Virus record (IMG/VR): IMGVR_UViG_3300045988_083108
Coordinates: 1-46,317 of that record
Reading direction: 5' to 3' (one strand)
DNA from: a virus
Length of the DNA stretch: 46,317 bases
The position numbers and the translations under genes are program-made. Position 1 is the stretch's first letter; every line of letters begins with the position of its first letter. Positions 13,163 through 16,412 of the stretch are shown here, piece after piece. The notes under the pieces were generated by a model that worked only from the letters and a program-made list of their open reading frames with translations, ran no database searches and was not told the origin of the DNA.

Positions 13163-13176
13163 CTCCCCTGCCCTGC
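13163..13176 (-). repeat. Bipartite G-box copy GCAGGGCAGGGGAG (inverted partner of 16399-16412)
   Basis: Forward strand reads ctcccctgccctgc. Confidence 0.85.
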
Positions 13177-13356
13177 CGCGCTGCCGCCCAGTTGATTTTC
13201 CCGTCAAAAAATCATTGAATCAATCAAAAACGCAGTCAATCAATGCAAAACAAAGTATATATAATATATAATATATGCTACATCTAACAATATGCCGCCA
13301 CGCGGTAGGGGAGAGAATAGTGCATATTTGCGAGACAAATGTCCATAAAAAAGTTG

Positions 13357-13385
13357 TTGACAAAGTCTCCAAACGGCGATATACT
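13357..13385 (+). promoter_or_regulatory. Promoter TTGACA-17-TATACT
   Basis: ttgaca 13357-13362, tatact 13380-13385. Confidence 0.7.
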
Positions 13386-13444
13386 TAGGGTGTTCCAAGC
13401 GGAACGACACAACACACACAACACACACCAAAGGGAGAGCAACT

Positions 13445-14707
13445 ATGGAAAGCATTCTTTACAGAAACAAGAGAAACACCTATAGCGTTGACAACAGCGT
13501 TATCAAGGCGGCGGTCAATGAGGGCAAACCTGCGAGCGCTTATGTCGAGCGCATTATGTGCAGCCGTGACGGCAGACTTTTCGAGAAAGTCCCAAACGAA
13601 CCGCGCTATACTTGCAACGGCGAGGTCATTGAGCGCGGAGTTAAAGAGGACTTGCAGGTATGTATCAAGAATCTGAATGAGGCTATTGCAGAGTACGCCG
13701 ACGAACACGGCGCAGCGCGTAAAGAGCGCAACGAGGACGCGCACAAACCGCAACCAGCCGGAGTAATGCCCACAGCGCAAGCGGCAGACTTCACGGCAGC
13801 TGGTGCAGCGCTGGCGATGCTGGCGCAGATTAAAGAAGAACAGGTTTTTAACAAAGTCTGCGCCGACCTTGACGCTTTTATCTTTGAGAAATACGGCAAG
13901 CTGCCGCAAAAGGAAATTGTTGTGAAGCTGCCCGACGGTAGCAAAAAGAGCGCTGGCGGCATCCAGCACGAAAAATTCGAGACTGTCCTCAAATACTTGA
14001 CTGCCGATGTGCCGGTATTCATGAGCGGCGCAGCAGGAACAGGCAAGAGCAGCATTGCAAAAAATGCCGCTAAAGCGCTAGGACTTGACTTTTACTTCTC
14101 CGGTGCGGTAAATGATATTTACAAATTTACCGGATTCATCGACGCTAACGGAAACTACAGCAAAACGCAGTTCTATGATTTCTGCGTGAACGGCGGCGTT
14201 TTCTTTCTGGACGAGATGGACGCCAGCATTCCCGAGGTGCTTGTGGCGCTTAACGCGGCGATTGCAAACCGCTATTTTGACTTTCCTTGCGGCAAAGTCG
14301 AGTTAAACGAAAATTGCCGCTTTATCTGCGCAGGTAACACATACGGCAACGGTGCTGACGCGCAGTATACCGGACGTTACCAGCTAGACGCGGCAACGCT
14401 TGACCGCTTTGCAGTGGTGGAAATTGATTATAGCGACGAGATTTTCAACGCTGTAACGAACGGAAACAAAGACCTAATCAACTTTATCCGTAGTTTGCGG
14501 AAAGCAGCGCAGAACGTCGGTGCAAACTTGATTCTTAGTTACCGCGCGGCGCAGAACGTGACAGCGATGGAGAGCGTCGGGCTATCTACTGCCGATTGTG
14601 TCAAACAGTGCATTGCAAAGGGCTTGAGCCACGACACTGCACATATGATTGCGGAGCGTCTCAACGGTTCGGACAAGTACACAGCAGCGTGGAAGGAGAT
14701 TTTCTAA
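13445..14707 (+). CDS. AAA+ ATPase, MoxR/CobS-like (AAA_5 type)
   Basis: Walker A GAAGTGKS, Walker B FFLDEMD, LDAATLDRF sensor region; about 190-aa N-terminal extension. Confidence 0.75.
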   Translation: MESILYRNKRNTYSVDNSVIKAAVNEGKPASAYVERIMCSRDGRLFEKVPNEPRYTCNGEVIERGVKEDLQVCIKNLNEAIAEYADEHGAARKERNEDAHKPQPAGVMPTAQAADFTAAGAALAMLAQIKEEQVFNKVCADLDAFIFEKYGKLPQKEIVVKLPDGSKKSAGGIQHEKFETVLKYLTADVPVFMSGAAGTGKSSIAKNAAKALGLDFYFSGAVNDIYKFTGFIDANGNYSKTQFYDFCVNGGVFFLDEMDASIPEVLVALNAAIANRYFDFPCGKVELNENCRFICAGNTYGNGADAQYTGRYQLDAATLDRFAVVEIDYSDEIFNAVTNGNKDLINFIRSLRKAAQNVGANLILSYRAAQNVTAMESVGLSTADCVKQCIAKGLSHDTAHMIAERLNGSDKYTAAWKEIF

Positions 14708-14709
14708 CT

Positions 14710-15597
14710 ATGATTTACGCGCAGAAATTTGAGACGATGGACAGCTTTTTCAAGTTCATCACCACCGCGCAGAATAACAAAGTTTTTGCAGACTGCCACG
14801 ACAGCGACATGAAACCGGAATGTTTCGCGGGCACAAAAAACTTTGCTGAAGCTGCGGAGCTTTTCCGCAACGGTTGGGATGCAGGTCTTGAAAAAATCAA
14901 GGCAGGGAAGGGGGAAGACTTTGCAAGCCCAGCGCCTAGGGCGCTTGTGCGCAACTACTACGTCGGAGCGTGCCCTAATGTTCCCAGAGCATTGCAGGGC
15001 TTGCCTGATGCTATGAGACAGGTTTACCGCACGCCACAAAAGCAAAAGGTCATGATGGTCTTTATTGACACGTGCGTTTCCGGTACGCTGGACAAAGACA
15101 GGTATCAGAAAGTTGGCGGGTACATCTATCAGGCAATCAAGGCGATAGAGGAGCAAGGGACGCGGGTGGAGATTATCACGGGCTTTGTCGACAGCATCAG
15201 ACAGAACATCAGCCAGAACAGGAGCGCAGCAGAAGAATTGATTATCTGCCCAGAAATCACGCTGAAAAAAGCAAGCGAGACGCTTGACGCAGGGCGGTTG
15301 TCTTTTGCGCTCGTTCATGTAGGAATGTTCCGCCGCTTATGTTTCAAGTATATTGAGACTTGTCCCTGCGAGCTACTGAACGGCAGCAGGGCAGGGGACT
15401 ACAGCCCGAGCGGCTACGGTATTGTAGCAATGGCAAATGATAAGATTGCCGCGAAGTTTAACAAGTACATGAAGAAAACGCATGAAAACGCGGTTGTGCT
15501 TTGCATGAGCAAACTTGCACAAAATAAAGAAATCACCAGCGGCGAAAAGCTGTTAGAGCTTATTAAATCAGAGTTAAAGGGGAGCGCAGAGAAATGA
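14710..15597 (+). CDS. vWA-like (CobT-like) partner of the AAA+ ATPase
   Basis: Start moved to ATG 14710 (RBS ggaga). KVMMVFIDTCVSGTL resembles a MIDAS DxSxS strand. Confidence 0.5.
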   Translation: MIYAQKFETMDSFFKFITTAQNNKVFADCHDSDMKPECFAGTKNFAEAAELFRNGWDAGLEKIKAGKGEDFASPAPRALVRNYYVGACPNVPRALQGLPDAMRQVYRTPQKQKVMMVFIDTCVSGTLDKDRYQKVGGYIYQAIKAIEEQGTRVEIITGFVDSIRQNISQNRSAAEELIICPEITLKKASETLDAGRLSFALVHVGMFRRLCFKYIETCPCELLNGSRAGDYSPSGYGIVAMANDKIAAKFNKYMKKTHENAVVLCMSKLAQNKEITSGEKLLELIKSELKGSAEK

Positions 15598-15872
15598 CAG
15601 AGAAAGAAATCATCCGAGTGGCGACAGAGTACAAGAAGAATAAGCGCCAGATTGAAGCGCTTGAAAAAGCAAACGAGCGCATTAAGGCGCTGCTGGTGGA
15701 CGAACTCAAGGAGAGGGGAGGGGATGCCCCACTTGTGGCGGGGCAATATAAAATCAGCGAAAGCAGTGTAAAGCAGCAGAGGATTAACGCGGAGAGACTG
15801 CGGAAGGAGCTGCCCAGCGTGTGGGCGGGTTTTGTGGTAGTCTCCACATACAAGAGATTGAATATTAACTAG
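15594..15872 (+). CDS. Coiled-coil hypothetical protein
   Basis: ORF with an ATGA-type overlap. Confidence 0.6.
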   Translation: MTEKEIIRVATEYKKNKRQIEALEKANERIKALLVDELKERGGDAPLVAGQYKISESSVKQQRINAERLRKELPSVWAGFVVVSTYKRLNIN

Positions 15873-15884
15873 GGGGTGAGCAAC

Positions 15885-15983
15885 ATGGTTCTGTTTTTCA
15901 CCTTGCTAATTTTATTTGACAGATGGGCAGACCCACCAGCGGCACGGAGAGCAAGGCGCAGGCGGCGAGGGCGATATATGTAA
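15885..15983 (+). CDS. Mini-ORF, 32 aa (hydrophobic N-terminus, Arg-rich tail)
   Basis: Hand-translated MVLFFTLLILFDRWADPPAARRARRRRRGRYM; strong RBS gggggtga. Confidence 0.3.
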   Translation: MVLFFTLLILFDRWADPPAARRARRRRRGRYM

Positions 15984-16020
15984 ATTAAAACTTTTAAATC
16001 GGAGTAAAGGAGCAACAGCA

Positions 16021-16254
16021 ATGAACTACCAACAGACAGCGAGAGAGCTTGACGCACTGGACGAGCGCAGCGAGGAAATCAGCAAGAGACTGGACGAGAT
16101 TGAGGAAGAACTTGAATACGCGGAACAGGGGACGGAGCGCGTATATGAACTGCTGGACGAGAAGGAAGAACTAGAGCAGGAGCGGCAGGAACTTGAACAG
16201 CGCAAGTCTGAATTAACAACAGACGGCTTTACAAGATGGGACAATGGATTTTAA
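16021..16254 (+). CDS. Highly acidic coiled-coil protein, 77 aa
   Basis: Start moved to ATG 16021 (RBS aaaggag); Glu/Asp-rich throughout. Confidence 0.65.
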   Translation: MNYQQTARELDALDERSEEISKRLDEIEEELEYAEQGTERVYELLDEKEELEQERQELEQRKSELTTDGFTRWDNGF

Positions 16255-16268
16255 GCAGGGAAGGGGAA
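16255..16268 (+). repeat. Bipartite G-box copy GCAGGGAAGGGGAA
   Basis: Read directly. Confidence 0.85.
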
Positions 16269-16275
16269 TAGAAAA

Positions 16276-16344
16276 ATGTTTGGTTTTATCGGCGCGGCGC
16301 TTGCTGGCGCGGTCATCGGTTGCGTTTTAATCCTGACGGACTGA
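16276..16344 (+). CDS. Mini-ORF, 22 aa hydrophobic peptide (MFGFIGAALAGAVIGCVLILTD)
   Basis: Hand-translated; RBS aagggga. Confidence 0.3.
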   Translation: MFGFIGAALAGAVIGCVLILTD

Positions 16345-16398
16345 AAAGAAAGACGGTTAAAATACGAGTAAAGCCTTTTGGTGTGTGTGAATATAGAA

Positions 16399-16412
16399 GC
16401 AGGGCAGGGGAG
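16399..16412 (+). repeat. Bipartite G-box copy GCAGGGCAGGGGAG
   Basis: Read directly; exact reverse complement of 13163-13176. Confidence 0.85.

Follow-up and report, generated by a model that had tools for sequence, protein, structure and literature searches.

The messenger RNA (mRNA) of a predicted phage operon appears able to close on itself by pairing its 5' untranslated region (UTR) with its 3' UTR. The operon occupies ~13357-16446 of IMG/VR virus record IMGVR_UViG_3300045988_083108, a phage genome of ~46 kb whose 46,317 nucleotides (nt) we refer to as the window. Its first gene encodes an AAA+ ATPase; part of the leader of that gene, box B, is complementary to part of the 3' UTR, box B'. 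We assign a probability of about 60% to the reading that pairing between the two masks the ribosome-binding site (RBS) of the first cistron in the operon mRNA. A sequence-only reading of the window had located these boxes, together with an outer inverted pair, A' and A, and two flanking heptamer arrays, and had suggested that such nested bracketing of an AAA+/vWA module is expected of an invertible, excisable, or self-contained regulatory cassette. The sequences and coordinates that it gave for all four boxes are exact.

The IMG/VR queries for relatives were two alignments and the genes for the AAA+ protein, DnaB, and the 162-aa upstream protein; metagenome, GTDB, and protein databases were searched as well. 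They were grouped as clades I to IV plus L050, L051, L054, and L055. The AAA+ protein of clade IV is 82% identical; L051, L055, and L054 stand for intermediate clades at 77, 74, and 65% identity, respectively, and their contigs end before the 3' UTR.

Complementarity between the two ends of the operon

As a pairing arm, box B spans 13420-13434 on the plus strand (it was first placed at 13421-13434) and joins the 3' portion of a CA-repeat leader to the first half of the Shine-Dalgarno (SD) sequence. Box B' (16374-16389, plus strand) is a GU-rich anti-leader/anti-SD segment of the 3' UTR; it immediately follows the last stop codon, and 8 nt separate it from the terminator. Together they form an inverted repeat with 15-nt arms and 93% identity. 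In every genome that has both operon ends, the 5' and 3' UTRs can form a duplex of 14 to 17 bp that covers the AAAGG(AG) of the SD sequence; RNAduplex energies are -19 to -28 kcal/mol in all 13 genomes of the first set, with the same states at 13 further loci. When the transcript ends were folded together, as had been advised, the minimum-free-energy structure kept the 5' hairpin and the terminator and added the B/B' helix, with a gain of ~19 kcal/mol in the window and ~24 kcal/mol in L010. These energies and cofolds support the earlier proposal that B and B' are able to pair the 5' UTR with the 3' end over the RBS, and the predicted promoter and terminator place both boxes inside the predicted transcript, as that proposal assumed.

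The two arms differ between clades in a coordinated manner. In clade IV, the leader outside the CA repeat reads CGATAGGAG in place of CCAAAAGG(AG), and B' reads CTCTATCG in place of CCTTTTGG. Set side by side, the arms are ...CACACACCAAA(A)GG and CCTTTTGGTGTGTG in clades I to III, versus ...CACACACGATAGGAG and CTCTATCGTGTGTG in clade IV. Our MAFFT alignment A2 misregistered clade IV, and a cross-pairing energy matrix was used in place of structure-pair counting. Mean duplex energies in this matrix are -23 to -24 kcal/mol within a clade group, versus -16 to -19 kcal/mol for cross-clade combinations. Among sense-strand windows, B' is also the best partner for the leader in each of four genomes, which represent three clades (ranking 1/4628 in the window, 1/1310 in L010, 1/2109 in L033, and 1/766 in L050), and it adjoins the stop codon of whichever gene ends the operon, despite gene gain and loss. 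For L051 and L055, with leaders CACACATTTTGGAGG and CACACAACGGAGG, the complements predicted for the 3' UTRs are CCAAAATGTGTG and CCGTTGTGTG, respectively. Judged from these sequences, the B/B' complementarity is a signature of selection for RNA pairing. Gene conversion would require more than a 15-bp DNA repeat, and a site for a shared protein would demand three-way coevolution.

The simplest competing view is that all of this is chance or low complexity, with B/B' a CA/GT coincidence, which the sequence-only reading had named as a possible refutation, and A/A' a random match of 14-mers. Box B is largely a CA repeat, and a runner-up partner at 22101 scores -25.7 against the leader, versus -26.2 for B' in the window, although the genes there lie on the opposite strand. 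Exact 14-nt inverted repeats are also found in the window at near the chance rate. However, the stretch of B/B' that is not CA repeat covaries (CCAAAAGG versus CGATAGAG), B' takes first rank in each of the four genomes above, the motif shared by A and A' greatly exceeds its expected count (see below), and the boxes are conserved out to clades with 82 to 87% protein identity while the neighboring spacer diverges. Given this conserved, clade-covarying complementarity, B/B' is more than CA/GT low complexity; covariation and partner specificity rule that option out for the inner pair, and an explanation of the whole pattern by chance is very improbable.

Proposed consequence of the pairing

In our model, B' on the full-length mRNA of ~3 kb, or on a released 3' fragment, would anneal to B and thereby sequester the RBS of the first cistron. 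Adjoining or overlapping, the downstream cistrons appear to be translationally coupled, and masking of the first RBS would then limit the operon as a whole. The duplex may, in addition, be a target or a shield for an RNase. The outcome would be self-limiting, burst-like early expression, for which icaR is the experimental precedent. Both arms probably reside on one transcript, and pairing in vivo, with an effect on translation or stability, is likewise probable.

Several points weigh against this model. The promoter, the transcription start, and the terminator are predictions only. The covariation is essentially one multinucleotide event between two clade groups, accompanied by minor bulge or mismatch variants (a C-A mismatch in L050 and a 1-nt bulge in L003-L007), and the runner-up at 22101 comes close to B' in energy. 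Pairing over 3 kb must compete with ribosomes and local structure, and a duplex of 14 to 17 bp is short for RNase III. Finally, a weak terminator-like site at 15810-15828, within the operon, might truncate some transcripts.

Alternatively, B' may act in trans, as part of a small RNA (sRNA) of ~75 nt that is derived from the 3' UTR and consists of B' and the terminator. Such an sRNA would repress its own mRNA at the AAA+ RBS and perhaps also, in clade I, act on the leader of the open reading frame (ORF) at 17076-17390. A seed just upstream of a terminator is the typical geometry of 3' UTR-derived sRNAs, OppZ and CarZ among them (PMC7398697). In the window and in several clade I relatives, ORF 17076 has a B-like leader, AAACACAC(C)AAAAGGAG, and the covariation fits cis and trans action alike. 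Yet processing or an internal promoter is unsupported, and the second B-like leader is missing in clade IV, which indicates that the conserved target is the operon's own leader. A trans-acting sRNA is thus possible, if fairly unlikely, and it is a variant of, and does not contradict, the best explanation, pairing of the 5' UTR with the 3' UTR.

Anatomy of the operon

With a confidence comparable to that in the pairing model, we regard ~13357-16446 as an autonomous early-region operon of a human-gut phage. Along the plus strand, its order is sigma-70 promoter, 5' hairpin, CA-repeat leader with SD sequence, AAA_5 ATPase, DUF7192 protein, two to four small ORFs, 3' UTR, and intrinsic terminator. 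The predicted sigma-70-type promoter, TTGACA-17-TATACT (13357-13385), matches at 11/12 positions and confirms the promoter originally called at these coordinates. Its -35 element is TTGACA in clades I and II, L050, and L051, and GGACAA in clade IV; the 65% clade has a TTGACA-17-TTTAAT promoter. A 5'-terminal hairpin, GUUCC-AAGC-GGAAC (13392-13405), lies at the predicted transcript start and has the compensatory variant CUCC-AAAC-GGAG in L011 and L051. The CA-repeat leader and SD sequence follow at 13406-13439, the SD sequence AAAGGGAGAG itself occupying 13430-13439. Conservation extends to the promoter, the 5' hairpin, the leader, and the terminator; the suggestion of a self-contained regulatory cassette therefore stands in the sense of a transcription unit.

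The first gene (13445-14707) encodes a 420-aa AAA_5 ATPase of the MoxR/CobS-like type (Pfam PF07728, E = 6.5e-8). Its product belongs to PHROG 249, annotated "porphyrin biosynthesis" (E = 2.7e-50), in the category "moron, auxiliary metabolic gene and host takeover." The second gene (14710-15597) encodes a 295-aa protein whose Pfam match is DUF7192 (PF23822, E = 1.2e-26; PHROG 1909). The sequence-only reading had taken it for a vWA protein, which could not be confirmed: DUF7192 was the only Pfam match, searches of NCBIfam and by phmmer against PDB both came back empty, and no DxSxS motif was seen in the translation. An AlphaFold2 model of this protein had a predicted local distance difference test (pLDDT) score of 34, too low for use.

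Two small ORFs with gene calls in relatives occupy 15594-16254, the first, at 15594-15872, encoding a 92-aa protein and the second, which ends at 16254, a coiled-coil protein. They are followed by a tiny hydrophobic ORF, MFGFIGAALAGAVIGCVLILTD (16276-16344), which clade IV lacks and whose SD sequence is the copy at 16255-16268 of the G-rich motif described below. In five relatives (L001 at 5425-5628, L002, L005, L006, and L009), an additional 61-aa gene, MSIQYMPTFSSEKEF..., separates the tiny ORF from B'. In the window, 16345-16373 represents a clean deletion of this gene, with its last codons, TACGAGTAA, as the remnant.

The outer boxes are members of a terminator-linked family

Box A' (CTCCCCTGCCCTGC, 13163-13176), which we also call the C-box, is the only minus-strand copy of a G-box family with the motif GCAGGGMAGGGGAG; box A (GCAGGGCAGGGGAG, 16399-16412) is a plus-strand copy. 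The two form an inverted repeat with 17-nt arms and 94% identity. The intrinsic terminator of the module (16395-16446, plus strand) is AAGCAGGGCAGG...CCUGCCUUUGC followed by U5, with box A in the ascending arm and CCUGCCUUUGC as the descending arm. Because box A is the 5' arm of the operon terminator hairpin, it is transcribed; the earlier placement of A and A' outside the transcript fails for A. The stem is kept through changes in both arms in L036 (GCAAAGCAGG/CCTGCTTTTGC) and L010 (GCAGGGCGCTTG/CAAGCGC), a G.U pair is replaced by G-C in L007, and an arm variant in L004 also preserves pairing. In L050 (GCAGAGCCGGA/TCCGGCTTTTGC), the G-box sequence is gone and the hairpin is retained.

At the other end, the intrinsic terminator of the upstream gene, T1 (13113-13150, plus strand), is GCCCCACUGACCGG-GAGA-CCGGCUGGCGGGGC followed by U5 and is conserved in the alignment of 13 genomes. 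Next to it, hairpin T2 (13151-13199, plus strand) presents the C-box in a 14-nt apical loop and is followed by TTGATTTT. A hairpin with differing stems surrounds the C-box in 6/9 variants from clades I to III and L051; in clade IV, the upstream terminator itself (-33 kcal/mol, z = -4.4) uses the C-box as its descending arm. In RNAalifold runs on T2/C-box and on the mixed-clade terminator, indels misaligned the arms, and these comparisons were made with single-sequence folds and manual inspection of the arms instead. Rfam returned no known RNA family at the boxes, transfer RNAs (tRNAs) being its only matches.

The outer boxes were originally presented as a pair that looks like DNA-level sites. 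Exact 14-nt inverted repeats are common by chance, with 11 distinct pairs in the window versus 6.4 ± 3.5 under a first-order Markov null, and the motif is present in eight copies. The best extended match of A' is not A but a 41-nt inverted homology between 13164-13204 and 17575-17612 (score of 37; null maximum of 32), so a longer inverted repeat brackets 4.4 kb, comprising the module and the next two genes, and extends beyond the module. We rejected A' and A as specific partners, as A' variants covary neither with A nor with any single G-box. An inverted duplication of the whole spacer was rejected as well: short boxes alone match, and the components hold their order and flip individually. With A as a terminator arm and both boxes in a multicopy family, A and A' are terminator-linked family members and not a dedicated pair.

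The same evidence bears on the possibility that A/A', and likewise B/B', serve at the DNA level as sites for a site-specific recombinase or transposase that would invert or excise a cassette. Inverted repeats of 14 and 15 nt do flank the module, and the boxes, whose lack of conservation in relatives had been named as one way for the cassette idea to fail, proved to be conserved, with their opposite orientation retained in 21/21 genomes. However, the module was never inverted or missing in ~30 assembled relatives, where it has a single orientation relative to DnaB and the upstream genes, and searches of relatives with flanking genes found no empty site; presence or absence precisely at the boxes, which had been suggested as a check, thus came out as presence in all relatives found. 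No Pfam or PHROG match to a recombinase, integrase, or transposase was obtained in the module, its neighbors, or 10 other ORFs scanned, and the flanks (GGTGGCG versus AGCGCAA) show no target-site duplication. The motif has at least eight copies, and the terminator arm formed by box A is replaced in L050 while the hairpin persists. Identity tiling revealed mosaic breakpoints at ~12400-12900, inside upstream genes, some relatives being 96 to 100% identical up to ~12400 and then 75 to 88% identical within the 162-aa upstream gene. These breakpoints indicate recombination within genes and not at the spacer boxes, and cassette exchange at the boxes was rejected on this basis. At the assembly level, the invertible or excisable cassette is refuted, and we give almost no credence to DNA-level sites of this kind.

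Polarity of the G-boxes and the C-box

Allowing up to two mismatches (<=2), GCAGGGMAGGGGAG has eight copies in the window, all within 13163-17612, versus 0.36 expected; seven are on the plus strand, and A' alone is on the minus strand. The scan of 21 genomes (190 kb) yielded 116 motif matches. The upstream spacer has exactly one minus-strand copy in 21/21 genomes, and the operon and downstream spacers hold 91 plus-strand copies; the 4 kb of upstream genes contained none, and minus-strand copies were lacking downstream. G-box 2, AGCAGGGAAGGGGAG (16458-16473, plus strand), is the most conserved element of the downstream spacer, invariant over clades I to IV while its surroundings diverge (alignment A6). 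Two further G-boxes (17557-17570 and 17599-17612, plus strand) come after the terminator of the next unit (17515-17545). Within the DUF7192 coding sequence, the copies at 14902-14915 and 15386-15399 make use of AGG and GGG codons (KAGKGE and SRAGD); they are conserved in clade I and absent from clade IV, which hints at selection on the nucleotide motif inside a coding sequence. Lastly, a C-rich cluster at 17986-18115 (plus strand) contains short G-box cores in reverse orientation (17990-18115), namely, CTCCCCTGC twice, TTCCCCTTCCCCCC, and CTCCCCTAT.

This polarity is real yet unexplained. A role as terminator arms alone is insufficient, and this counts against our account of the boxes: G-box 2 and the copies in the spacer at 17391-18150 (IGR3) are conserved yet lie outside hairpins. 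Two other roles were rejected, that of a promoter, as a -10 element at fixed distance is absent, and that of an RBS, as a conserved ORF follows the 16255 copy only.

The C-box and G-boxes might form a functional polar boundary, through Rho loading, anti-SD activity, or a roadblock, or serve as oriented binding sites for a phage regulator. In the former case, the opposite orientations would be functional: RNA polymerase coming in from either flank would transcribe C-rich boxes, and G-rich boxes would be present in sense transcripts. The strict polarity, the invariance of G-box 2 in four clades with diverging flanks, and the AGG and GGG codons of the coding copies would all fit such a role, as would the C-rich tracts that come after the upstream terminator as far out as the 65% clade and the strongest C>G windows, which flank the convergent junction described below. 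Against this, a single 14-nt box is short for a Rho utilization (rut) site, the C/G counts near A' (28:16) and antisense to A (29:14) are unremarkable, no candidate binding protein was identified, A' covaries with no particular G-box, and a G-rich motif is expected more often on a G-rich coding strand (GC skew of ~+0.2). We consider a polar boundary of this sort unlikely.

Still more doubtful is the idea that the upstream C-box and the downstream G-boxes around B/B' constitute a new polar insulation device or switch, for which two versions can be framed. In the first, C-rich boxes met by transcription from either side could act as Rho-loading, anti-SD, or roadblock signals. In the second, A' in transcripts that read through from upstream could pair with box A, brought near by the B/B' helix, and dissolve the operon terminator; if true, such long-range antitermination would couple the downstream genes to upstream read-through.

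The composition of the region fits a Rho-type reading only at 17575-18063, at the convergent junction, and not at A or A'. The windows with the most extreme C>G in the entire sequence are 17986-18063 in plus-strand RNA (28 C, 2 G), the highest for C/G, and 17652-17575 in minus-strand RNA (33 C, 7 G). The junction itself (17575-18115), where plus- and minus-strand units converge, coincides with the GC-skew switch, and the two windows resemble Rho-loading sites guarding each unit from read-through. The ~400 nt between them contain many GGGC/TAGGG repeats and could be an origin.

Heptamer arrays and other features of the phage

The symmetric nesting reported for the module extends only in part to the heptamer arrays, whose positions are confirmed. 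An AATCGCT array at 13028-13108 (plus strand) overlaps the stop codon of the upstream ORF (12556-13044), and a CAATCGT array with an AATCG core, followed by TATATATAATATATATA, occupies 16476-16560 (plus strand; array to 16545). Since AATCG is on the same strand in both, the arrays are direct repeats and the bracketing is not fully symmetric. Tandem Repeats Finder delimited them as 13041-13108 (period 7, 9.4 copies) and 16476-16522. In the 13-genome alignment, close relatives differ in copy number by indels of whole units, and the upstream array persists in the 65% clade (L054). Their 7-nt period does not match the helical repeat; candidate roles are iterons and an RNA-binding array.

Other elements recur in the spacers. 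An AT-rich 13- to 16-mer, (G)TATATATAATATATA, is found once per long spacer (13253-13276, 16543-16560, and 18008-18023), adjoining G- or C-boxes and the short repeats AATCAAT/ATTGATT (13204-13250 and 16643-16701). A block of ~115 nt at 18065-18180 is near-invariant, even in L006, where the sequence to its left has been replaced. Within the block are two direct GGTACTCCCCT repeats, spaced 44 nt apart, and a minus-strand terminator at 18179-18148.

Elsewhere, the window encodes a replication module (exonuclease, methyltransferase, DnaB helicase, and RusA), thymidylate synthase, and the terminase large subunit. Rfam places three tRNAs on its minus strand, the third of which, a tRNA-like gene at 19130-19196 (44 bits), was unreported by ARAGORN. 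The phage promoters are sigma-70-like, and the SD sequences are of the AAAGGAG type. Close relatives came exclusively from human-gut metagenomes in the IMG/VR, metagenome, and protein-database searches. A scan of GTDB species-representative genomes gave zero matches and hence no prophage copy, and the sole blastn match in INPHARED was a distant Enterococcus phage that has an AAA+ gene and lacks comparable operon ends.

Several near-complete relative contigs break within the three repeat-rich spacers. The 3' end of L008 (9126-9176 of IMG/VR contig 3300045988_099007) is a Nextera adapter, CTGTCTCTTATACACATCTCCGAGCCCACGAGAC, and thus an assembly artifact; the start of L055 is adapter-like as well.

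Comparison with known systems

To our knowledge, which includes no dedicated search for cases in phages or at operon scale, very few mRNAs of bacteria are described as closed by 5'-3' UTR pairing, and two of them, icaR and hbs, are short, monocistronic host messages. If the pairing described here is real, it would be a phage example of such closure at the scale of an operon of ~3 kb with five to six cistrons, and it would give phages a protein-free way to restrict an early operon to a burst. The compensatory variants of clades I and IV provide a natural mutational test. More generally, where inverted repeats surround a cassette, promoter and terminator anatomy and motif copy number should be checked before DNA rearrangement is considered.

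The module recalls the invertible segments of Hin/Gin/Cin and fimS, in which a stretch of a few kilobases lies between short inverted repeats. It differs from them in that no recombinase was found, a single orientation is seen in ~30 genomes, the repeat is multicopy with one arm in a terminator stem, and the promoter lies outside the inner repeat. Like phage morons, it has its own promoter and terminator, and its AAA+ gene falls in the moron category of PHROG 249; unlike morons, it is present in every relative found, and neither presence/absence polymorphism nor a junction at the boxes was seen.

Closer parallels come from RNA-based regulation. OppZ and CarZ of Vibrio cholerae are autoregulatory, trans-acting sRNAs processed by RNase E from operon 3' UTRs (PMC7398697). 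They share with B' a seed that sits just before the operon terminator and has complementarity to a ribosome-binding region in that operon, an arrangement that provides negative feedback in OppZ and CarZ. Their host is Gram negative, however, and OppZ targets an internal cistron, whereas B' would target the first.

In hbs of Bacillus subtilis, a 14-bp helix joining the 5' UTR to the 3' UTR of an mRNA of ~0.4 kb modulates RNase Y cleavage in the leader (PMC5737220). The B/B' helix resembles it in its long range and in its similar length of ~14 bp, but the hbs helix leaves the SD sequence uncovered, while B/B' would cover it. In icaR of Staphylococcus aureus, a 3' UTR motif pairs with the SD region, blocks initiation, and forms an RNase III substrate (PMC3868564). 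Here, the likeness is 3' UTR-SD pairing within one mRNA in a Firmicute-type system. The icaR message, monocistronic and from the host, is ~1 kb long, and its 3' UTR of >100 nt carries a C-rich UCCCCUG anti-SD motif; the phage operon, known from sequence alone, spans ~3 kb and five to six cistrons, and its anti-leader combines CCUUUU with a GU repeat 8 nt before the terminator. On present sequence evidence, the phage operon is probably a computational example of operon-scale 5'-3' UTR pairing and a new member of this small group, beside icaR and hbs.

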